DNA from: a virus
Strand: one strand, 5' to 3'
Length of the DNA: 33,704 bases
UHGV virus genome: UHGV-0014912
A program made the translations under genes and the position numbers. Below the pieces are notes generated by a model. It was not told where the DNA came from. It was given only the letters and a program-made list of their open reading frames with translations, and searched no databases. Positions 4,340-26,213 of this stretch are shown here, one piece after another; the first letter of the stretch is position 1; each line of letters begins with the position of its first letter.

Positions 4340-4536
4340 TAGTTAGCTCCTGACATCAGAAGCGTCCCAAATGTTTTTATCTGTTCTTCGCTGATAAGAA
4401 TCATCTTAGGTGCATTAATATCGAAAGCTTGAAGAACAGGAACAGCAACAGTGTTATAAGTTATAGTAACGAGAAATAGAACAATAAGATAATCTTTAGC
4501 GTGTTTTGCCATTGCTTGGAGATATTTCATTTTCAT
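4339..4536 (-). CDS. Small membrane protein (possible holin-like); true start may be internal
   Basis: 65 aa with one hydrophobic helix (LIVLFLVTITYNTVAVPVL); overlaps the 3' end of the endonuclease VII gene. Confidence 0.25.
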   Translation of the reverse strand: MKMKYLQAMAKHAKDYLIVLFLVTITYNTVAVPVLQAFDINAPKMILISEEQIKTFGTLLMSGAN

Positions 4537-4972
4537 ATTTCACCTTTATTTGGTTTGAATAGACTTTTTCAAGCTCCTTTTTCGTTTTGAGATTTGAACC
4601 TGTGATAGCTTTCATCTCAGAAAGATTTTTTCGAGAGAACGCTTTCTTTAAATCAGAAATAAGTTGTGGATGAGTAGGATTGTCTGAGTAGTCTTTTTCA
4701 AGATACTTAACAAGATTCTTTAAAAACTCTATGTAGTCGATTTTCCCATCGAGACCTGAACGTTTAAACTGATGTTTTATTCTGCCCTCGAGGACGTTTG
4801 CTTGAGCGATTAATAATCCTCTGCATCTGCCTGCGTTAGAGCCGGTTAAAATATGGTCGTGGTCAAGATGGGCTTTATTAACTTCATGAATCTTTATGCC
4901 AGTTAAAGCACAAAGACCTTTTTGCTTTTGAAAGAGTTCTTGCTTATAAATCGGAATCTCTTTTCTTTTCAT
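4496..4972 (-). CDS. Endonuclease VII-like Holliday junction resolvase (T4 gp49 family)
   Basis: Motif block HLDHDHILTGSNAGRCRGLLIAQANVLEGRIKHQFKRSGLDGKIDYIEFL matches my recollection of T4 endonuclease VII (HLDHDH...VRGLL...EG..KH.F.RSGL). Confidence 0.7.
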   Translation of the reverse strand: MKRKEIPIYKQELFQKQKGLCALTGIKIHEVNKAHLDHDHILTGSNAGRCRGLLIAQANVLEGRIKHQFKRSGLDGKIDYIEFLKNLVKYLEKDYSDNPTHPQLISDLKKAFSRKNLSEMKAITGSNLKTKKELEKVYSNQIKVKYENEISPSNGKTR

Positions 4973-18728: not shown

Positions 18729-18738
18729 CTTTATTTAG
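18729..18738 (-). promoter_or_regulatory. CTAAATAAAG motif overlapping the large terminase stop, upstream of the 18222..18704 gene
   Basis: Exact 10-mer 27 nt upstream of the ATG. Confidence 0.35.
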
Positions 18739-20630
18739 TTAAGCCATCCACGTTTCTTTTGATTGCTTCGTTGTATACGATGCACAGAACGAGCCTGAAC
18801 GCGTTTAGGTTCTTGCTTAACTGGTTCTATTAGCTCTTGCTCTAAGTCTTCAGGAATTTCGACCTCTGCTTTGGAAGCTAGCTTTCTCCACTCGTGAAAT
18901 TTGATTTTCTCTAGAACTTGCAGACGCGCACAATAACCGTAGTTAAAGCAGTCAAGACCTTCGTTTCTGACTCCACCTTGCTTAATAACCCATCTGACAG
19001 TATTACCAGAGCGTTTAAGTTCTTCCGACATTAGCTGTTCGGTATAATCATCTGGAACATCATCAGAGATTTCGACTCTTACAGGCGTATTCTGAACATT
19101 CTTTATGCTTCTGTTTAGTAGCTCGCGAACCATGTCTTTGCCTTTGTTAACTCCAATCATGAACAGTTCATAACCGCCTGTTTTCGTGATTTTCGTTGGC
19201 ACATATGGAGCATCAACTGATGAAGCACCCTTAATAGCGTGTAAGTTTCTCCATTGAGAACAGAAACGATATATTGTTTTTGTTGCTCGACCATTTGAAC
19301 TATCGACGTTCGCCCATGCAAGAGTTAATTTTCTTCCTGAGTCAGTTCTGAAAGTCGCTTTCAGATAAGCAAGAAGGTCTTTATAAGCAGGCGAGTCGAT
19401 AACTTCGGCGTTCATCGTCATGAAAGAGCGATGGTCGAGGATATAAACTGTTTTCTCGTTGTGACCCATCAGTGTTACTTCCAAACGGTCTTGCTGTTGG
19501 TCAACACCCGCAGTTAAAAACAATGTGTCATCTGGAATATTTCTAATACCGATATCAGTTTTTAATTCATCAAGCTTTGAGGACTCCAGTTCTTCGTTTA
19601 AATCGTCAAACGGAATACCGAGAACAGTGTTATAAAACGTTGACAAACTGAAAGTCTGAAAAGCGTCTTTGAAGTCTGCAACGACTGATTTAATACTGGA
19701 CATCGGACTGTACAAACGATTTATATGGAATCCTGCAACATTCGATTCTGGATTAGTCTGAATCCATTCACCTTGTTTTACCGCTCTTGCTCTTTCTCCT
19801 TCTGTGAAATGATGTTCACAAACAGGACATTGAATATAAGCACTGTCGGGATCTGGTAGAGATTTACCGTCTTGTTTCAACCATTCGAATTTAATATTTT
19901 CCCAAATAAGTTCATGCATATGTCCACATTCAGGACATGGCACATGATATTTGCGCTTATCGGAGTTTTCATACTGCGTGTTAATAGCACCGTATTTGCC
20001 AGTAGGAGTTGAACAGATAAAGACACGAGCATCCTCGCCGAAAGTCGTAGCACGTTGCTCGGCTATCATTATCGGGTTGCCTTCTTCGGTGTCTGTTTCT
20101 ACTGCGTCAACTTCGTCTAACAGGAGCAACGGTAATGTCTTGCCTCGTAAGTGAGAAGGGGAGTTCAAACTCATGAAGTACCAAAAGCCACCGTTGCGGA
20201 GCTGAATCTGTGATGTGTTATTAACTGCGTTTCTGTCGTTCTTATCCGTGACTATTCGTTGCATCTCTTCGGATGCGTCAATCATTGGCTTAATCTTGCC
20301 TGATAACCACTGAGTTGTTTCTTTTGCTGTTGACTGTAAAACACCTGCGTTGCCTGGTTCTGTCGCAGACTTATAGAACAACACACCGTTCAGAATCGTT
20401 GTCTTGCCGATCTGTGCAGACGTCATCAGAACGATTTTTTTCTTTCTCTCTTTTATTACATCTATCATCCCGCGCTGGAACTCGAATAATTTCATCGGTT
20501 GTCCTGAGTGCGGACCATCTGGGAATTTCAAGTTAGCTTCGACCCACTCTGATGGTGTGTAGTCCGGTGGTGGAAGCAAGAAACGTTTTGCACGTTTTAG
20601 AATCAATTCTAGTTTTTGTTTGTTTTTCAT
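18735..20630 (-). CDS. Terminase large subunit (lambda GpA family)
   Basis: 631 aa; Walker A-like LMTSAQIGKTT, Walker B-like LLLLDEVD, zinc-ribbon-like CPECGH...CPVCEH, C-terminal nuclease-like region; AGGTGA RBS. Confidence 0.85.
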   Translation of the reverse strand: MKNKQKLELILKRAKRFLLPPPDYTPSEWVEANLKFPDGPHSGQPMKLFEFQRGMIDVIKERKKKIVLMTSAQIGKTTILNGVLFYKSATEPGNAGVLQSTAKETTQWLSGKIKPMIDASEEMQRIVTDKNDRNAVNNTSQIQLRNGGFWYFMSLNSPSHLRGKTLPLLLLDEVDAVETDTEEGNPIMIAEQRATTFGEDARVFICSTPTGKYGAINTQYENSDKRKYHVPCPECGHMHELIWENIKFEWLKQDGKSLPDPDSAYIQCPVCEHHFTEGERARAVKQGEWIQTNPESNVAGFHINRLYSPMSSIKSVVADFKDAFQTFSLSTFYNTVLGIPFDDLNEELESSKLDELKTDIGIRNIPDDTLFLTAGVDQQQDRLEVTLMGHNEKTVYILDHRSFMTMNAEVIDSPAYKDLLAYLKATFRTDSGRKLTLAWANVDSSNGRATKTIYRFCSQWRNLHAIKGASSVDAPYVPTKITKTGGYELFMIGVNKGKDMVRELLNRSIKNVQNTPVRVEISDDVPDDYTEQLMSEELKRSGNTVRWVIKQGGVRNEGLDCFNYGYCARLQVLEKIKFHEWRKLASKAEVEIPEDLEQELIEPVKQEPKRVQARSVHRIQRSNQKKRGWLN

Positions 20631-20775
20631 AAGTCACCTAAGCTAATGAATCCTTTATGGATTCCATCTCTCATGACTCTATTTATGAAAATATCCACAA
20701 TTATTTTCGGAGGTCGCTTGCACCTGGATTTTCGCCTGTTAAAGTTCAATCCATCGAAACACGGGGAATAACGAA

Positions 20776-21216
20776 ATGAAAAACGCATTAACTGTTGAAA
20801 ATAAAATTGCTTCTGAGTTAAACGCTGGTACTGAATTATCAGAACGTAAGCTTGCAGAGAAATTTGAAACAACTCGTTCCGTTGTTTGTCGTGTTAAAGC
20901 GAACATCGAGAAATACACAGTTGTTGAAGCTGTACAGGAAGAAAAACCTGAAGTTAAAAAACTTAATACAGCAGAAGTTATCGACACTGTAAAAGCTGAG
21001 GAGATTACTCACAAAGCTGTAGGACTCGATAATATTGAAAAGCTTCTCGCTAGTAAGTCAGCGAATAAAAAGCCCGCTGAAATTAGCTTGTTAATTTTTA
21101 AATCGGTAAAAGGAGATTTTGAGTTATTCAGTAAGCAAATGAAGGGAAAATCATCGCAGTATATTAAAGACCAATTTTTACGCTCTAAAAATAAACTTGA
21201 TAAGGATTCAAAATGA
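20776..21216 (+). CDS. Putative DNA-binding (HTH) protein, first gene of a three-gene coupled operon
   Basis: 146 aa; N-terminal HTH-like segment (TELSERKLAEKFETTRSVVCRVKAN); transcribed divergently from the large terminase gene. Confidence 0.35.
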   Translation: MKNALTVENKIASELNAGTELSERKLAEKFETTRSVVCRVKANIEKYTVVEAVQEEKPEVKKLNTAEVIDTVKAEEITHKAVGLDNIEKLLASKSANKKPAEISLLIFKSVKGDFELFSKQMKGKSSQYIKDQFLRSKNKLDKDSK

Positions 21217-21311
21217 AAGCTGTTAAAACTGTAATCGCTGTTATCGTTGCTGTTTCTTCTATGTCTGCTAATGGTATCGCGATAGACTTTGATTATTGCG
21301 TTAAGATATGA
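21213..21311 (+). CDS. Small hydrophobic peptide (32 aa), translationally coupled on both sides
   Basis: MKAVKTVIAVIVAVSSMSANGIAIDFDYCVKI; ATGA overlaps with both the upstream stop and the downstream start; below the ORF-track size cutoff. Confidence 0.25.
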   Translation: MKAVKTVIAVIVAVSSMSANGIAIDFDYCVKI

Positions 21312-21556
21312 AATTAGATATCCCACCGACATGGAGACACGATTTTAAGATTTCATCATGTGGCAAGTACATAACGTTAGAACTCTTTATACCGAGTGTC
21401 TCCGCGATGGTGGGATATCGTGCAAAGAGGATTACAATTCGTGCTATGTTTGATGCTTTTCAGTTTAATGATCGCAAGACGCAACAAACGTTAATTCGCT
21501 TGCTTGAAGAACTGAACAAAAAATATTATTCAATAATTGAGATATTTCCAAAATGA
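21308..21556 (+). CDS. Hypothetical protein
   Basis: 82 aa, ATGA-coupled to the small peptide ORF and followed by a terminator. Confidence 0.3.
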   Translation: MKLDIPPTWRHDFKISSCGKYITLELFIPSVSAMVGYRAKRITIRAMFDAFQFNDRKTQQTLIRLLEELNKKYYSIIEIFPK

Positions 21557-21561
21557 CAAAA

Positions 21562-21585
21562 GGGAGCTTAGTGCTTCCTTTTTTA
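21562..21585. terminator. Bidirectional terminator between convergent genes
   Basis: GGGAGC / GCTTCC stem (one G-U pair) followed by TTTTTT on the plus strand and preceded by AAAA. Confidence 0.5.
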
Positions 21586-21882
21586 GATATCACCCGTCAT
21601 AACATCATTAAAGAATTTTCTCGCCTGAGCATTAGTACCCATAAAAGCGATGAACTCACCATCCAGAACAATCTGTATAGCGCGTTTGATAAAATCATCT
21701 TGAACACGTTTCGATAATATTATATCAACCGGTCTTGGATCCATATCAGTTAAATCTGGATGTTCCTGAATCGGCCTGATAATAGATTCTGACTGACGAA
21801 CAATTATCGGCATTTCGTGTCTGTGTTTTTCCAGAAATTCAATATCGAATTCTGTTTTACCGTCTAGCAAAAGTTGTTTCAT
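21583..21882 (-). CDS. Hypothetical protein (last gene of the HEG-lipoprotein operon)
   Basis: 99 aa; start overlaps the lipoprotein stop (ATGA). Confidence 0.3.
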   Translation of the reverse strand: MKQLLLDGKTEFDIEFLEKHRHEMPIIVRQSESIIRPIQEHPDLTDMDPRPVDIILSKRVQDDFIKRAIQIVLDGEFIAFMGTNAQARKFFNDVMTGDI

Positions 21883-22091
21883 AGTTTTCCTTCATTTAAT
21901 TTTCTGCAACTGTCAATATCGAGTTTAGCTGTTTCTGGATTATACTCTGTGAGATTACAGATAACACCTTGCTGTTTGAATGTTTCAACGTTGATATTAC
22001 TGTTAATACATCCTATCAGAGAAAAAGCTCCGACAATCGTCAGAGCCATGATAATAGGTTTAAAAAGTTGTTTTGCTTGTTCGTTATTCAT
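21879..22091 (-). CDS. Small outer-membrane-type lipoprotein (candidate superinfection-exclusion, Cor/Llp-like)
   Basis: 70 aa; signal peptide with lipobox LIGC (PIIMALTIVGAFSLIGC); mature part about 45 aa; TAATG-coupled to the upstream HEG. Confidence 0.4.
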   Translation of the reverse strand: MNNEQAKQLFKPIIMALTIVGAFSLIGCINSNINVETFKQQGVICNLTEYNPETAKLDIDSCRKLNEGKL

Positions 22092-22699
22092 TACGCTGCC
22101 TCTCTTAAACGACGTGCTTGTTGTGCTAGTTTCATTTTCTCGATAGTTTCAGCAGAACGAGTTCCGATAACACGACCTTTATTTGCTTTGCCGATTTTCT
22201 TTTTTGTTTCTTCTGACTGAACAGAACCGGTTTTTGCTTTTGAGATTTTTCTACGTGTCTCTAGTGAAACAACATGACCAGTCATGCTATCAGAGATTTT
22301 CTTGTTTCTTTCTTTAATTTGTTGTTCTGTCATGGATTTAAAAACGTTGCCTCCCGCTTGTCCTGATGAAATATTTAATAAGTTAGCTTGCTGTTGTCTT
22401 GCGTGTTTAATGCAAGCAGTTTCGAAGTCATACGCTTCCTGTTCGTCTGTGAAAGTCTTTAGAACAACTTTAAACACAACGTCTGTCGGTTTCATTTCTG
22501 CTAGTTTCTCACGAACTAAACGACCGCTGCCTATATAAAGCATGTCAGGCTGTTCATTGTAAGATTGTTTGCCGTAATAAACGTAACTGACATCATTGAT
22601 GCGAAAAACGGTTTTATAAACTGCGTAAGCTTTGATTTCAGCGTTACGGATATCAGAACGGGTTTTGTAAGTTACGTTGTTAATAGTGCGCTTGTGCAT
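22091..22699 (-). CDS. GIY-YIG homing endonuclease with NUMOD3 repeats (Seg / I-TevI-like)
   Basis: 202 aa; N-terminal GIY-YIG-like AVYKTVFRINDVSYVYYGKQ; three C-terminal NUMOD3-like repeats (GHVVSLETRRKISKAKTG, SVQSEETKKKIGKANKG, RVIGTRSAETIEKMKLAQ). Confidence 0.7.
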   Translation of the reverse strand: MHKRTINNVTYKTRSDIRNAEIKAYAVYKTVFRINDVSYVYYGKQSYNEQPDMLYIGSGRLVREKLAEMKPTDVVFKVVLKTFTDEQEAYDFETACIKHARQQQANLLNISSGQAGGNVFKSMTEQQIKERNKKISDSMTGHVVSLETRRKISKAKTGSVQSEETKKKIGKANKGRVIGTRSAETIEKMKLAQQARRLREAA

Positions 22700-23117
22700 T
22701 TGAGTTTCCTTAAAGTTAAAAATAAAAGTGAAAGAGATTTACATTCAGTTGTTTTTCTGAATTACACTTGTATTTAGTAACTAGGTTTATCTATAACCTG
22801 ATAAAAACAGGGAATAGCACTAAATGATCAAGGAACACTCCTATTAAATTAACGTTTGTTAATAAATCCTAGGACGCATCAGGTTGAAACCAGATAGCAA
22901 TATGAACAGGAGTAACATCAAGGTCGGTTAATGCAGCAGGATAGATCCTAGAAAGAACCTGATAACAGCTTGAACATAACGAGAAAGGGCGCTAGCCCGT
23001 CGAAAGCTCGCTTGCGAGATTGAGACTAACTAACGAATTCAGATTTAATTAGCGATCATTAAGTTTATTAGATATCCAGTGATCAGTATAATGCAGTTAA
23101 CCAGTAATCAATATTAT

Positions 23118-23337
23118 CCAGATCTGAAAACAAGATAGGCGCAGCCGCGCGAAGCGCTAATAATATTATCTAGAAAAAACATTATTAACTTAGTCAAACT
23201 TGATTATCTGGATTACTGAGTGATCATAACAATGTTGACTTAGTGTTATCTGTCGCGCTTACGCGCTAATGTTATTAATTGGGGCTAACGCCCTCTCGTC
23301 GAGCAAGCTCTCCTCGCTATCTGGTTTTCAGATCTGG
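23118..23337. repeat. 21-bp imperfect inverted repeat pair (23118..23138 and 23317..23337) bracketing a ~180 bp segment with iteron-like TATC(C/T)(A/T)G copies
   Basis: CCAGATCTGAAAACAAGATAG versus CTATCTGGTTTTCAGATCTGG (two mismatches); six TATCCAG / TATCTGG / TATCTAG / TATCTGT motifs between 23073 and 23324. Confidence 0.5.
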
Positions 23338-23429
23338 TTCTTTCCTTGTTTTTAAAACCTTCCATATCATCTTTATCCAATTGTTCTTATAGGGAGATTT
23401 TTCTCAGTATCCATGCGCTTCTCCGACTT

Positions 23430-23471
23430 GCATCGATGCGCTATCGATGCGTTTTGCTGTACATCGATGCA
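23430..23471. promoter_or_regulatory. Three tandem operator-like palindromes (GCATCGATGC core)
   Basis: GCATCGATGC at 23430..23439 (perfect 10-bp palindrome) with related copies ending at 23450 and 23470, about 90-130 bp upstream of the 23562 gene. Confidence 0.45.
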
Positions 23472-23529
23472 CTTTGTTCCGATTGTTTTTGATCATTTTG
23501 TGCTGAGATAAGTTTACGACTTCTCTCCT

Positions 23530-23537
23530 TATAAATA
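23530..23537 (+). promoter_or_regulatory. TATAAATA element (T4-late-promoter-like) upstream of the 23562..24008 gene
   Basis: Exact TATAAATA 25 nt upstream of the ATG, followed by AAGGAG RBS. Confidence 0.35.
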
Positions 23538-23561
23538 TTCTTTGAACAAAGGAGAATCCTA

Positions 23562-24008
23562 ATGAGCTACTATTTTTGTAACGTCGGTGAAGTTTTCGAC
23601 GGAGAAATTTCTATTCTTCGAAAGCGTGATATTTTCACAAACACGATTATCGGAGATGTATCAACCCAAAAAGAAAAAATGAAAAAATGTTCACCTAGTA
23701 TTCAGAGACATTTAGAAAAAAGTCAGAATCTTGATATCGGTTGCGTCTATGTTTTAAAGCTTGAGAACGAAAAATGGTATGTTGGATATACTAAAAACAT
23801 ATTAGGAAGAATTAAAGAACATGCTATGGGTATTGGTGCTGAATGGACAAAAACTAACAAACCTATTCAACTTGTTAATTTTTTCATCGGAGATCATAAA
23901 ATTGAGAGAAGATTTACTGAAGAATTAATGATTAAGTTCGGCTGGCAAAATGTTAGAGGTGCAAGATGGACTGCTAACGAGATTCTTTGTCCTATGATGT
24001 TCAGATAA
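23562..24008 (+). CDS. GIY-YIG nuclease-domain protein with a ~60 aa N-terminal extension
   Basis: 148 aa; GCVYVLKLENEKWYVGYTKNILGRIKEH fits the GIY-(~10)-YVG pattern of small GIY-YIG proteins. Confidence 0.55.
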   Translation: MSYYFCNVGEVFDGEISILRKRDIFTNTIIGDVSTQKEKMKKCSPSIQRHLEKSQNLDIGCVYVLKLENEKWYVGYTKNILGRIKEHAMGIGAEWTKTNKPIQLVNFFIGDHKIERRFTEELMIKFGWQNVRGARWTANEILCPMMFR

Positions 24009-24182
24009 TTTTTCGAGAGTTTGTTTACTATCCCGGTGATGGGTATAAATACTAGTATAAGTTAAAGATTCGCACTGATTGAGAGATTTCTTCCTCGTTT
24101 GTTTACTCTCAGTCATTACGATTATAAAATAACTATGAAAGCAAGTTCATTTAGAAAATCCAAATAAAATTCCTTAAAGTTT

Positions 24183-24208
24183 GAAGCACTCTTCGGAGTG
24201 CTCTTTTT
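24183..24208 (+). terminator. Strong intrinsic terminator
   Basis: AGCACTC-TTCG-GAGTGCT stem-loop followed by CTTTTTTC. Confidence 0.7.
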
Positions 24209-24394
24209 TCAACATTACAAAAAAGGCAACCCATGAAATTTATTCCAAATAAGTTCGAAATTGAATCTCGATTAGATGCTGGTGAAACTTTTCAGCAGAT
24301 TGCAGAATCAAAGAAAATGAATAAAGCAACGCTGTATAACGCTTGCAAAAAACGCAACATCAGAACGACTAAACAGAAATAAAAGGAAAACAAA

Positions 24395-25312
24395 ATGAAA
24401 TTTTCAGTATTTGATAACTTAAACGGAACCACTAACGTTAGCTTGAATAAAAAAATTGTTAAGACTAACGAAATGACCAACAACAGAAACAAACTGAAAG
24501 CATTTGTCGGAAGTTTTACCGATATTCATCGCAACGTTAGAGCAAAAATGCTAACTAAAATTGAAAATGCTTTGACTGTAAAAGATATGCGTAACTTTGA
24601 AATCGGTATGTCCGAACTGAATGATAAACCTGCTATCGTTGCTTATACAACTGATAAAGCTGTTATCGTTTGTTCAGAAGCAAATCGTTGGAAAGCTCTT
24701 GGTTCAGACCTGACTTTAGTTCATGCGAAAGAATCCCAAAACTTTGTTCAGCAATATATTGGTGATTTTATCGAGATTAAAGAAGAAATTGAATTTCCGA
24801 CTGAACAGAAAGTTGACGTTATTTCTAACGAGTTGGAAGAATTGAGAAAAGAAATTGAGAAAATGAAAAAAGAAAAGGCAGAACATAAAAAACTTATCTC
24901 TGCCTATGCGAAAAATTATAAGGGTGATGAATTATCTTTTGATGAAGACCTGACGATTATCAAACATCAGAACAGTATTAAATCAGAAGTTGGCGCTTCC
25001 GAAATTTCTAACGAATCAACTGTATTTAGTGTAACAGAAACAGCAGAAAATTTAAACGACGACCTGATCGTTTCTATCGATCAATCAAACAAGGAAAATA
25101 AAATGCCTTTATATGATTATTCCTGCGAATGCGGAAACTATTTCGAAAAAACAAGAAAAATCTCTGAACGTTCTAGCGCTGAATGTCCTGAATGCCATAA
25201 AGAAGCAAAACAGCAACTGACAGCACCAGCCGGAATTCAAAACGGTTATTACGAACAAGGCAGAATGTTCATTAACAGAAACAAACAAACGTTTAAAACT
25301 GCTACACGATAA
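24395..25312 (+). CDS. Coiled-coil protein with a C-terminal FmdB-type zinc-ribbon domain
   Basis: 305 aa; C-terminal MPLYDYSCECGNYFEKTRKISERSSAECPECHK (CxC...CxxC); internal AAGGAAA RBS before that Met suggests possible separate expression of the zinc-ribbon part. Confidence 0.4.
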   Translation: MKFSVFDNLNGTTNVSLNKKIVKTNEMTNNRNKLKAFVGSFTDIHRNVRAKMLTKIENALTVKDMRNFEIGMSELNDKPAIVAYTTDKAVIVCSEANRWKALGSDLTLVHAKESQNFVQQYIGDFIEIKEEIEFPTEQKVDVISNELEELRKEIEKMKKEKAEHKKLISAYAKNYKGDELSFDEDLTIIKHQNSIKSEVGASEISNESTVFSVTETAENLNDDLIVSIDQSNKENKMPLYDYSCECGNYFEKTRKISERSSAECPECHKEAKQQLTAPAGIQNGYYEQGRMFINRNKQTFKTATR

Positions 25313-25330
25313 AGGAGCATCGCGCTCCTT
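25312..25330. terminator. Bidirectional terminator between convergent genes
   Basis: GGAGC-ATCGC-GCTCC stem-loop flanked by AAA and TTAATTAATTT. Confidence 0.45.
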
Positions 25331-25877
25331 AATTAATTTCTATCATGTCTTGTGATTGTTCAGATTCTTTTTCGTCTTCTGATTCGTCCTGTTCGTTCGG
25401 ATCTTCGTTTAGTTCCTGTTCGAACAGTTCAACACCGTTTAGAGTATCGTCGATAATTCTTTTCAGTGTTTCTTTCACCGTCTGAACATCAGAAGCTGAT
25501 TCCAAAATTTCGATAGCATGTTTATTCGGTATTAATCGCATAACAGATTTTAAGTCAGCACAAAAACGGTTCAACTCAGATTGAACATATTCAACTGGAA
25601 TTAATTGCTCCGATTTTTCTTGCGCTGTGTATTGAGCCAAGTCTGCTTTTGCTTTCTGCTCGCGGAGTTTTTCTTTCTCCATTTCATCGCGAACGGACAT
25701 ATTACGCATCGGGTTAATTTTGTTCTCAATTATCCAACGAGTGCCTTCGTCTTCTGGAATACCAGAGGGATTATCTGAATACGGAAGTCCTTCTGCACGC
25801 CAGCTCTTGATAGCGTTCAGGGTATAACCATAACGACGCGCCATATCAGTCATTGAAATATATGTTTTTCTTGCCAT
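25329..25877 (-). CDS. Putative terminase small subunit (lambda Nu1-like winged HTH)
   Basis: 182 aa (lambda Nu1 is 181 aa); N-terminal block SMTDMARRYGYTLNAIKSWRAEGLPY resembles Nu1 QLADIFGASIRTIQNWQEQGMPV; acidic C-terminus; a MerR-like regulator is the alternative. Confidence 0.45.
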   Translation of the reverse strand: MARKTYISMTDMARRYGYTLNAIKSWRAEGLPYSDNPSGIPEDEGTRWIIENKINPMRNMSVRDEMEKEKLREQKAKADLAQYTAQEKSEQLIPVEYVQSELNRFCADLKSVMRLIPNKHAIEILESASDVQTVKETLKRIIDDTLNGVELFEQELNEDPNEQDESEDEKESEQSQDMIEIN

Positions 25878-26213
25878 TGTTTTTCTCCAATCGTAGAGGG
25901 AATAAGGGTTTAACTGTATTTATCAGTCAGCGTCAGGGAATCCTCCGGGATATTTATGTCAACTGGAATGAACTGCACTGTAAATAATCCCTCACAGGTG
26001 AAATTTAAATCGAGCGCTTGAAACATCTCGGTGTTTCAGAAGTCCCAGAGTAACTATTATTTTTTGTTAGAGGGGGGCAGAAGATGAGTCGTTAAAACTT
26101 ATTTAAGCAATATCATTAATGATTTATATTTGGCTGCGTTTTAGGCTAATCAGCAGCCAAATTTTTAATTGTCGATGAAACGCCAGTATCGCTAAAAATA
26201 GAGCTATATAAAA

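Follow-up and report, generated by a model that had tools for sequence, protein, structure and literature searches.

The 4.7 kb between the two terminase genes of this prophage are probably (we would say about two chances in three) an old, clade-defining module that came to separate a once-adjacent Nu1-type terS and GpA-type terL, and that has since combined a control function with the uptake of mobile cargo. The element is a 35-kb E. coli prophage between ybiT and ldtB, and we analysed a stretch of 33,704 nucleotides of it (the window). As the original prediction described, terS and terL are co-oriented with 4698 bp between them, and ORF calls reproduced every listed gene and coordinate.

18735..20630, minus strand: terL, GpA-type large terminase, 631 aa (Pfam GpA_ATPase 4.8e-62, GpA_nuclease 1.7e-50; phrog_15 1.6e-150)
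25329..25877, minus strand: terS, Nu1-type small terminase, 182 aa (phrog_57 'terminase small subunit' 1.2e-20, residues 4-174)

No known relative with a TerL at least 52% identical lacks the split, and no more distant one has it. The gap measures 4.3-7.6 kb in 17 of 17 independent relatives whose TerL is 52-95% identical (records from E. coli, Citrobacter, Atlantibacter and metagenomes), and it is absent from 20 of 20 records with a TerL 38-46% identical, in which a terS homologue abuts terL and overlaps its start codon. The adjacency described as normal for these genes holds for the distant set and fails for the close one.

A conserved scaffold around a probable control region

The interval has a conserved scaffold with three parts: a GntR-like gene transcribed away from terL, a long stretch that lacks ORFs (0.8-1.5 kb in relatives), and an operon of small-HTH, coiled-coil and Zn-ribbon genes that runs towards terS. 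The interval had been called an accessory island, which fits its variable slots but not its presence in every relative with a TerL at least 52% identical or the conservation of part of its content; o146, the ORF-free region, o49/o305 and the Zn-ribbon are conserved core, and the remaining slots vary.

20631..20775: divergent intergenic region, terL/o146
20776..21216, plus strand: o146, GntR-like winged-helix regulator (Pfam GntR 1.1e-4, under the curated cut-off)
22700..23561: ORF-free putative control region, 862 bp, no ORF reaching 50 aa
24019..24210, plus strand: o49-operon leader, two promoter-like sites on GTTTGTTTAC boxes, -10 at 24044-49 and 24125-30
24233..24382, plus strand: o49, small HTH protein whose gene opens the scaffold operon (weak phrog_125, invertase HTH, 1.9e-3)
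24395..25312, plus strand: o305, N-terminal alpha/beta domain, coiled coil, FmdB-type Zn-ribbon (Zn_ribbon_8 1.3e-10)
25312..25330: terminator-like hairpin AAGGAGC-ATCGC-GCTCCTT between the convergent o305 and terS stops

Homologues of o146, named 'GntR family transcriptional regulator' in RefSeq, are 49-65% identical in L001, L002 and L004-L009 and missing from L010, L011, L018 and L019; in the close clade the gene invariably adjoins terL, divergently. The DNA between the two is contiguously 73-75% identical in L004, L007, L008 and L009 and 94% in L063, and would have to hold the terL-operon promoter. At the other end, o49 has a positional equivalent in all split relatives. Its neighbour o305 had been listed as a zinc-ribbon protein; by comparison it is a deletion fusion of two genes that most relatives keep apart, with the Zn-ribbon as the fused-on part. 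No sequence or fold similarity of o305 to Ant or any characterised regulator was detected.

The ORF-free region is 70-88% identical in relatives and matches nothing in Rfam, whether at gathering thresholds or at E<=1. Its earlier label, 'structured', is fair: positions 22960-23345 fold with z = -3.0, the same on both strands, and the hairpins of the window with all-G/C 4-bp stems all cluster at 22987-23293. Every split relative shows a 3-7x excess of hairpins in its ORF-free region, and this includes L010 and L019, whose regions cannot be aligned. From consensus and comparison, by which all promoters and terminators here were called, we predict the following elements in this region and in the o49 leader.

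23063..23092, plus strand: conserved sigma-70-type promoter, GTTTAT, 18 nt, TATAAT(GC)
23100..23345, plus strand: candidate non-coding transcript of ~230 nt, with GC mini-hairpins at 23147-57, 23255-66 and 23282-93 and a terminal hairpin with T-tracts at 23301-10 and 23324-54
23429..23475, plus strand: three ATCGATGC boxes, the first two also forming a terminator-like hairpin, then TTTTG
24102-24130, plus strand: predicted promoter in the o49 leader
24185-24202, plus strand: intrinsic terminator (stem-loop, T-run), 22 nt upstream of the o49 start codon

Upstream of the first promoter lies a near-invariant palindromic box, TTAACGATCATTAA, with a Dam site. GTTTAT and TATAATGC are invariant in all ten aligned sequences, and the 18-nt spacer, identical in just 4-8 of the ten, has no indels. 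The hairpins of the candidate transcript keep pairing by compensatory changes (GGGC/GCCC, UGGC/GCCA, GCGC/GCGC), its terminal hairpin occurs as GCGC, GACGC, GAGC or GGGC, and a T-rich tract follows that hairpin on the plus strand in all relatives. The o49 leader is 94% identical to that of L063 though both flanks have been replaced; across nine sequences 98.4% of the cells of its terminator stem are paired, with one compensatory pair (GC in five, AU in four), and only in the plus-strand reading are the loops UUCG or GCAA. This covariation is thin because the closest relatives are few, about eight distinct sequence types, and the two hairpins conserved best have stems without any variation, which are thus uninformative on RNA versus DNA function. 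The boxes at 23429..23475 track the N-terminal type of o305 (TGCGATGC in L001/L064, additional GGGCACC boxes in L002, and none of these boxes in L063), and may be o305 operators. Together, these features suggest a promoter- and terminator-dense regulatory leader. In the rest of the element no gene for regulation or replication could be recognised.

Could the ORF-free region and o49/o305 rather be a replication module, an iteron- and Dam-site-bearing origin by its initiator gene, lodged between packaging genes? We think this unlikely. The best-conserved elements resemble a promoter and intrinsic terminators with strand-specific RNA tetraloops, o305 and o49 have no similarity to Rep, DnaA-like or helicase-loader families, and the equivalent gene of L019 encodes an Ant antirepressor, not Rep. 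In its favour, nowhere in the 35-kb prophage could an initiator, helicase, primase or polymerase be recognised, the o305 family is of unknown fold, and the three direct boxes vary in step with the N-terminal type of o305. The region is also AT-rich (GC 0.33-0.40) with clustered GATC sites, 8 against ~1.7 expected, and these are enriched in most relatives; however, the L010 region has no GATC, DnaA boxes are not conserved and the TATC motif is window-specific.

Less probable again is a cos/pac site in the hairpin region, with the neighbouring GIY-YIG/NUMOD3, HNH and EndoVII proteins as accessory packaging nucleases, as in HK97-like and staphylococcal cos phages (HNH). In lambda, cos sits just upstream of terS, and there this locus has a separate conserved block.

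26012..26054, minus strand: conserved block GTTACTCTGGGACTTCTGAAACACCGAGATGTTTCAAGCGCTC, ~140-180 bp upstream of terS, found by comparison of relatives

It is kept across close relatives irrespective of the upstream gene, once per locus in 23 loci, and by its position alone is a candidate cos or late-promoter site. The nucleases are a mixed argument: most relatives have some nuclease gene in the gap, in L010 (HNH_3) and L019 (EndoVII) directly upstream of terL, but the families differ, and the L004/L037 type has none of these nucleases in its gap, where the endonuclease part of its retron RT is the only nuclease annotation. Likewise, GC-rich dyads within AT-rich DNA would suit a packaging site, and the conserved promoter and terminators would not. 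HNH-terminase cooperation is documented in other phages (Kala 2014 and Quiles-Puchalt 2014, cited in PMC12967558).

Cargo slots and their turnover

At least three slots within the scaffold vary in content even between 95%-identical prophages. Against L063 alone, at least eight indels or replacements fall inside the interval on a backbone 94-96% identical.

21213..21311, plus strand: o32, remnant (signal-peptide codons) of a YadA-anchor gene, from comparison with L063
21308..21556, plus strand: o82, small protein, no Pfam or phrog family match, stop/start codons overlapping with o32
21583..21882, minus strand: o99, variable cargo gene
21879..22091, minus strand: o70, small predicted lipoprotein (lipobox LIGC in the translation)
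22091..22699, minus strand: o202, NUMOD3 nuclease with GIY-YIG-like N-terminus, homing-endonuclease type (NUMOD3 1.9e-8; phrog_314 3.1e-18)
23506..24004, plus strand: o148 cassette, small GIY-YIG nuclease (gene 23562-24008; Pfam GIY-YIG 1.6e-7)

The 32-aa peptide taken for a gene is the 5' end of one that is intact in relatives (L063 2487-3089, YadA_anchor 1.7e-12). A 1.09-kb deletion at ~21273 left it: window 18847-21273 corresponds to L063 121-2547, and 21270-21585 to L063 3636-3951. The next gene, o82, has tblastn matches only in L001, L007 and L009 and is also in L063; o99 occurs only in the L001 type, with ~40 bp in its place in L063; and o70 has homologues 40-51% identical in L001, L007, L008 and L009 and 77% DNA identity in L063. 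Both o70 and o99 lie downstream of o202, and the homing endonuclease operon that the three were said to form is not fixed, a 1.66-kb cassette lying between o70 and o202 in L063. The nuclease itself is ~60% identical in L001, L002, L007, L008 and L009 and missing from L004/L037, L010, L011, L018 and L019; having diverged about as much as its neighbours (~60% aa), it may be a domesticated scaffold gene rather than mobile cargo.

The o148 cassette is found only in this prophage, preceded by a partial copy of the leader promoter. Homology stops at ~23472-23505 and is back at 24005, so that L004 has 15 bp against 533 bp here; a search among 5.8 billion entries returned only the gene's own cluster, and a GIY-YIG gene on the far side of the region in L063 is 25% identical. 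By this comparison o148 is a recent insertion of ~0.5 kb. A recent origin of the entire interval, inserted in this prophage between adjacent terS and terL, is in contrast very improbable: its GC (0.32-0.38) is slightly below that of the flanks, but split and scaffold are common to 17 independent records and conserved to the same divergence level as terL, which refutes the idea for everything except 23506-24004.

Relatives also bear out the suggestion of an insertion hotspot for selfish and defence cargo. Among the cargo of their intervals are a retron Ec67-family RT (in E. coli MS 115-1 and 2021CK-01361; RVT_1 4e-23), an Hcp-Tlde1 cassette, a YadA-like gene, GIY-YIG, HNH and EndoVII nuclease genes, an Ant antirepressor gene and, in L007, a three-gene cassette. 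The window's own cargo would be purely selfish (o202, o148), beside debris of past cargo, the truncated YadA-like o32.

The terminase pair and its proposed expression

To judge from its family, the 182-aa gene is a genuine Nu1-type terS that pairs with terL. Pfam Phage_Nu1 is matched by 7 of 16 family members (best 4.1e-7), and among TerS structures the family profile matches RppC (6hlk, 3.7e-4) and lambda Nu1 (1j9i, 8e-3). The original prediction allowed that the gene might be a MerR/HTH regulator, so that nothing was split, and we see virtually no chance of this: the window protein itself has no Pfam match and the N-terminal HTH of some members weakly matches generic HTH families, but the full-length phrog_57 match, the Phage_Nu1 and lambda Nu1 matches and the homologues overlapping the terL start codon refute it computationally. 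A MerR-type fold would not have discriminated, since lambda Nu1 itself has a MerR-like winged helix.

Between terS and terL lie nine ORFs on both strands (one a gene remnant) and a 0.86-kb non-coding region, and therefore neither co-transcription, which the convergent genes and the terminators between them also preclude, nor translational coupling is to be expected. We propose that terS and terL belong to different transcription units. From the promoter at 23063-23092, plus-strand transcription would yield a hairpin-rich RNA of ~230 nt, and two further downstream promoters would feed a short leader closed by the intrinsic terminator just before o49, so that o49-o305 would be expressed only through read-through or antitermination. 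In function the scaffold most likely resembles the secondary-immunity (antirepressor) regions of phages P1, P22 and N15, because the equivalent operon in L019 (Atlantibacter) encodes an Ant protein (phrog_63, 1e-34); given that o305 has no detectable Ant similarity, the analogy draws on position and on this one relative.

Relation to known systems

Like lambda cos-Nu1-A, the locus pairs a Phage_Nu1-type wHTH TerS with a GpA ATPase-nuclease TerL; the two genes agree with lambda in order and direction, and gpW-like and portal genes come after them. Unlike lambda, it has 4.7 kb between terS and terL, and the lambda arrangement with overlapping genes is retained by its more distant relatives.

Antirepressor regions controlled by RNA or terminators include P1 immI (c4-icd-ant), N15 CA RNA-antA/B/C, P22 sar/ant and P4 CI RNA. 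As in these, a long non-coding leader with promoter(s), a predicted structured RNA and an intrinsic terminator directly precedes a small regulatory operon. None of them is placed between terS and terL, however, and neither in sequence nor through Rfam does the leader resemble c4, CA, sar or CI.

Free-standing GIY-YIG/HNH homing endonucleases of the I-TevI/Seg type share with the interval the NUMOD3 and GIY-YIG domains, the presence/absence polymorphism and sharp breakpoints of o148, and different nuclease families at equivalent positions in relatives. Yet o148 is a catalytic domain without a recognisable DNA-binding module, and o202, about as diverged as the backbone, may be fixed; cleavage and homing by the two are putative.

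Anti-phage systems and morons reportedly gather in prophage hotspots such as the variable loci of P2-like phages and of P4-like satellites (Rousset et al. 2022). [quoted passage not shown] Here too we find a fixed site by packaging genes, differing content in near-identical prophages and retron Ec67-family RT cargo, although the window's interval holds no recognised defence system (PADLOC, run on o305 as the only island gene) and the phage is a GpA/Nu1 one with lambda-type J-like tail-fibre genes and a serine integrase. Thus, the hotspot is a variant of known prophage cargo hotspots rather than a fresh island, sited between terS and terL themselves and built round a conserved regulatory scaffold.

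Separation of a terminase pair in an E. coli prophage and its relatives

The small and large terminase genes, terS and terL, are co-oriented and 4698 bp apart, as originally predicted and as the six-frame ORF list bears out; the predicted gene map and domains were reproduced as well (NUMOD3/phrog homing endonuclease o202, GIY-YIG protein o148, Zn_ribbon_8 protein o305). The features are, in order:

18735-20630, minus strand: terL, GpA ATPase (PF05876, 4.8e-62, N-terminal) plus GpA nuclease (PF20454, 1.7e-50, C-terminal)
between the terminase genes, plus strand: o146, o32, o82
next, minus strand: o99, o70, o202
22700-23561: ORF-free region
next, plus strand: o148, o49, o305
25329-25877, minus strand: terS, 182 aa, phrog_57 terminase small subunit (1.2e-20, residues 4-174)

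We placed TerS and TerL on all fetched loci by tblastn. Where TerL is 52-95% identical, 4.3-7.6 kb separate terS from terL in 17 of 17 independent records, drawn from E. coli, Citrobacter, Atlantibacter, IMG/VR proviruses and a Logan assembly. At 38-46% identity terS abuts terL in all 20 records, whose sources include Yersinia, Serratia, Leclercia, Enterobacter and Pluralibacter. Because these two classes follow TerL identity without exception on either side, the interval is, on the evidence of these alignments, a long-established insertion by which a TerL subclade is set apart. A reading as a recent accessory island does not survive this comparison: with the split common to 17 independent records, a recent origin of the interval as a whole is refuted, and we hold it to be highly improbable. 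The GC content of the interval is 0.32-0.38, slightly below that of its flanks.

Is the 182-aa gene really terS? The window protein itself stays below detection in a Pfam search, but Phage_Nu1 is matched by seven of the 16 homologues that we aligned (best 4.1e-7). The family profile also gives weak but consistent matches to TerS structures, namely the TerS-like RppC 6hlk (3.7e-4) and other TerS chains, and a weak one (8e-3) to some 30 N-terminal residues of 1j9i, the DNA-binding domain of lambda Nu1. In 20 more distant prophages, homologues 25-34% identical lie directly upstream of terL and overlap it. The adjacency usual for a Nu1-type small subunit thus fails in the window and holds in these relatives; its loss is the anomaly studied here and no argument against TerS identity. 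Judged by sequence and gene order, the two genes are a real terminase pair, of lambda type, and the small subunit is predicted to bind DNA at cos/pac and to recruit TerL. The other original suggestion, that the Nu1-like call is wrong and the gene a regulator, is rejected because of these profile matches and terL-overlapping homologues; it counts as refuted and retains next to no probability.

The element is a ~35-kb prophage which, in complete E. coli genomes, lies between ybiT and ldtB (window 1-31950; 2865-37900 in the related locus L041). The right flank of the window, at 53% GC, is in fact E. coli ybiT (99.8% identity). With a GC content of ~39% the element lies far below E. coli, yet in that species it uses one and the same site, ybiT-ldtB; Citrobacter and Kluyvera relatives also adjoin ybiT. 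A search of 5426 complete E. coli genomes found relatives in only 7, and in several of these relatives IS elements have inserted into terL or the capsid gene. The element carries a large serine recombinase gene, a lysozyme gene and a few tail genes, terS and the interval, and then the terL-portal-protease/capsid-tail genes. Outside the interval we recognised no repressor, replication, lysis cassette, holin or spanin genes.

The tail and head genes have peculiarities of their own. Upstream of the tape-measure gene come the genes for a J-like central fibre (1229 aa) and for a second fibre of 940 aa, an unusual order (301-20630, 28270-29492); the distal-tail and hub-like genes are on the other strand, beyond the integrase junction, and in the head gene (660 aa) protease and capsid are fused. 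An endonuclease VII gene sits within the tail module (4496-4972; Pfam 1.3e-10, phrog_423 6.6e-36); in the Atlantibacter locus, L019, an EndoVII gene is instead found directly upstream of terL. The lysozyme/distal-tail/tail-hub segment (27751-29492) has one orientation relative to terS in the window, L001, L004 and L008 and the reverse one in L002, L007 and L009. We abandoned the idea of an invertible segment: the 21-nt inverted repeat around it (27659-79/29531-51) is not conserved and lies at chance level.

No close relatives were found among 50,697 phage records, and the phage GenBank collection gave no matches to megablast with 12 kb or to tblastn with TerS. The phage record with the best TerL match (51%), Escherichia phage DCP80 (GenBank PQ671644, our L042/L065), was dropped, as it looks like a chimeric assembly. 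One of its ends carries a GpA-terL/portal module (51% identical), with a 1.28-kb hairpin-rich ORF-free stretch before terL, and the other carries T4-like genes (topoisomerase, ndd, antiholin). In representative genomes a scan with a single TerL found nothing, and a profile scan found distant relatives and Atlantibacter only. Conserved-core pattern scans of metagenome and viral sequences gave only duplicates of known types and chance matches, so that covariation depth could not be raised. A literature search turned up no paper on this family, nor one on a serine-recombinase prophage integrated at ybiT.

A recurring scaffold with changing cargo

Close relatives keep the same order in the interval: a GntR-like gene divergent from terL (o146 in the window, with a weak GntR-type wHTH match), a variable stretch, usually a NUMOD3 nuclease gene, the ORF-free region, a small HTH gene, a ~200-310-aa coiled-coil protein, an FmdB-type Zn-ribbon (its own gene in most relatives, fused in the window) and finally a hairpin common to this operon and the convergent terS. 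In the more divergent loci L010, L011, L018 and L019 the sequences are unrelated and the architecture is kept: an operon on the minus strand whose first gene encodes a small HTH protein, 1.3-1.5 kb without ORFs, a nuclease gene and terL.

To our reading the most telling evidence on cargo change is the comparison with L063, because its TerL and TerS are 95% and 97% identical to those of the window. The backbone is 94-96% identical, and at least eight indels or replacements lie inside the interval. Against L063, o32 is the signal-peptide stub of a YadA-like gene that remains after a 1.09-kb deletion. A ~175-bp deletion made the fusion o305, to which no fold could be assigned. An 18-nt inverted repeat (20615/25272) considered as an insertion scar was discarded as Lys/Asn-rich coding sequence at chance level among 116 pairs.

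Cargo of the interval in related loci
Retron Ec67-family reverse transcriptase, adjoining terS: E. coli MS 115-1, 2021CK-01361
Hcp-Tlde1 three-gene cassette, YadA-anchor gene, second GIY-YIG gene: L063
YadA-like gene: L039, L064
Three-gene cassette without known function: L007, L038
HNH_3: L010
EndoVII, HNH, Ant antirepressor: L019

The locus thus behaves like the cargo and defence hotspots of prophages. Its position between core genes is fixed in the 17 independent records, its content differs between close genomes (gaps of 4.3-7.6 kb; the replacements against L063), and relatives carry defence or competition systems (retron Ec67-family reverse transcriptase, Hcp-Tlde1). The predicted insertion hotspot therefore stands as far as fixed position and changing cargo go; what has to be given up is the notion of cargo throughout, since a conserved scaffold recurs in the relatives. 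A PADLOC run on o305 recognised no defence system inside the window interval.

The Hcp, Tlde1-domain and 184-aa proteins of L063 (4342-5782) form a cassette in the packaging-gene interval that may be a phage-borne T6SS effector/immunity module. A second cargo slot lies immediately upstream of terS (26031-27754; o298, 26214-27110; o99b, 27110-27409) and is occupied by a small gene paired with one for a TIR effector of CAP12/Pycsar type (Pfam 4.8e-38; PADLOC PDC-S35 9e-71); L063 has, between flanks 94-96% identical, three small genes unrelated to this pair in its place.

Selfish passengers are the best reading of the nuclease genes, clearly so for o148. This gene has a GIY-YIG catalytic domain (PF01541, 1.6e-7), no DNA-binding domain recognisable by Pfam and no close relatives in a database of 5.8 billion protein clusters; it occurs only in the window, where 533 bp correspond to 15 bp in L004. 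For o202, Pfam detects NUMOD3 repeats only (1.9e-8), a candidate DNA-binding module, and GIY-YIG-like motifs (VYYGK...YIGSG) were read by eye; the gene is missing from the L004/L037 type. Both genes thus show presence/absence polymorphism with precise breakpoints in close relatives, and o202 is possibly a domesticated passenger.

Predicted promoter, hairpins and boxes of the non-coding region

The ORF-free stretch covers 862 bp without an ORF of at least 50 codons. A 13-codon ORF (23380-23420, minus strand) was rejected as coding because it is not conserved in L001. The equivalent region of relatives measures 0.8-1.2 kb and is 66-88% identical at the DNA level, on par with the coding flanks. 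At gathering thresholds neither the window nor any of six related loci matched an Rfam 15 family, and at E<=1 the sole match was a chance snoRNA outside the region; no tRNA or tmRNA genes were found.

In an alignment of ten sequences (nine distinct), GTTTAT and TATAATGC are invariant on the plus strand, separated by an 18-nt spacer that is constant in length and only 4-8/10 identical. This is a textbook promoter signature, and we predict a plus-strand promoter here (23063-23092). In front of it stands a near-invariant palindromic box, TTAACGATCATTAA, centred on a Dam site. Downstream, short GC-only hairpins follow in series within AT-rich sequence. Such hairpins are found nowhere else in the prophage. 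Every relative with the split shows a 3-7x enrichment of them in its corresponding region, even L010 and L019, which cannot be aligned; the same kind occurs upstream of terL in the DCP80 record. Two of them (GCGC-GAA-GCGC and GCGC-TT(A)C-GCGC) have invariant stems. In two further hairpins pairing is kept by compensatory changes and T-tracts follow on the plus strand, a pattern consistent with termination of a candidate transcript of ~230 nt. MFE z-scores are about -3 on both strands and, being symmetric, assign no strand to RNA as against DNA; RNAalifold recovers only the invariant GCGC elements.

Further downstream the window has three ATCGATGC boxes, which change together with the N-terminal type of o305: TGCGATGC in L001/L064, additional GGGCACC boxes in L002 and none of these boxes in L063. 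GATC occurs at 8 sites in 811 bp against ~1.7 expected from the window average, several of them positionally conserved.

A leader precedes o49. Two promoter-like sites lie on GTTTGTTTAC boxes, and a strong intrinsic terminator follows, 22 nt before the o49 start codon. Its stem is paired in 98.4% of cells of the nine sequences, with one compensatory pair, and its loop is UUCG in four and GCAA in five. Because these are canonical RNA tetraloops on the plus strand only, there is good evidence from the alignment that the terminator works as RNA in the plus direction. Between the window and L063 the leader is 94% identical, although both its flanks are replaced.

Prediction of antisense duplexes over the whole sequence gave z-scores of 0.2 to -3.2 in four of nine sequences and no consistent site. 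The only striking complementarity is that of the leader UUCCUUAAAGU to the ribosome-binding site of o202. The window has exactly two copies of the 11-mer ACTTTAAGGAA, read on the minus strand: the copy at 22706-22716 is the o202 ribosome-binding site, and the copy at 24170-24180 has its complement in the plus-strand leader RNA, just before the o49 terminator. Both copies change together in relatives (CTTTAAGG vs CTTAAGG), which suggests either trans anti-Shine-Dalgarno pairing or gene conversion.

Proposed control and its meaning

Since convergent genes and terminators lie between them, terS and terL would be separate transcription units, and the terL operon would be driven from the 145-bp region common to terL and the GntR-like gene. 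The ORF-free region would serve as a regulatory leader, with expression of o49-o305 requiring read-through of the terminator at 24185-24210, and the co-varying boxes may be operators for the product of this operon itself. What the comparisons show is the split, its scaffold, the turnover of cargo and the conservation patterns of the promoter and terminator elements. Beyond this, we think that the scaffold is a phage (anti-)immunity or late-control region working like immI regions, because the operon of the Atlantibacter locus encodes Ant and the element has no other recognisable control genes. That locus alone has an antirepressor gene (among Ant/KilAC/Rha) in the operon (PF03374 2e-8, phrog_63 1e-34). 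Comparative evidence also places a promoter and a leader with its intrinsic terminator just ahead of the operon, as in immI. The parallels meant here are P1 immI, N15 antA-C/CA RNA and P22 immI. The likeness concerns the mode of working only and we make no claim of membership, since o305 has no detectable Ant similarity and antisense pairing is only a candidate idea.

The ORF-free region could even encode an undescribed two-part regulatory RNA system, a reading to which we give a probability of roughly one in five. One part would be a hairpin-studded RNA of ~230 nt whose promoter overlaps the Dam site, and the other a leader or sRNA of ~75 nt ending in the UUCG/GCAA-capped terminator. Both would gate the antirepressor-like operon through termination control, and o202 would be silenced in trans via the co-varying 11-12-nt anti-Shine-Dalgarno stretch.

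The region could alternatively be a replication origin, with its initiator encoded next door. Repeat boxes, AT-richness and GATC clustering are present, and an iteron-type origin would account for them as well as for the missing replication genes and for the co-variation of the repeats; but with no recognisable initiator or other support from protein similarity, no conserved DnaA boxes and a poorer fit to the promoter/terminator grammar, we rate it as unlikely. A cos site with accessory nucleases is more doubtful still: a conserved block (26012-26054) already occupies the lambda-like position upstream of terS, and the interval nucleases share no homology among themselves and are not found in every relative.

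The behaviour of the locus echoes an old finding on the retrons Ec67 and Ec86, which in 186-like prophages, a different phage family, adjoin cos and a packaging gene (Dodd & Egan 1996, as cited in PMC6868368). What is new here is a hotspot between terS and terL themselves, stable across a clade, together with a conserved non-coding scaffold whose role is only proposed.

Few features of tailed phages are as conserved as the order of their packaging genes, and since the small subunit is hard to recognise, annotation pipelines call it by its adjacency to terL. The pair can nevertheless stay stably separated over long evolutionary time. The junction is a recombination hotspot at which Enterobacteriaceae trade retrons and selfish nucleases as well as adhesin-like genes and cassettes of T6SS effectors, and the stretch between a Nu1-type terS and a GpA terL offers defence mining a new, easily anchored place to look. 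If the two-part RNA system is real, a lysis-lysogeny or late-gene switch would lie between terS and terL; and if the non-coding region is an RNA-based switch or an origin, this would explain how a 35-kb prophage without recognisable repressor or replication genes is controlled.
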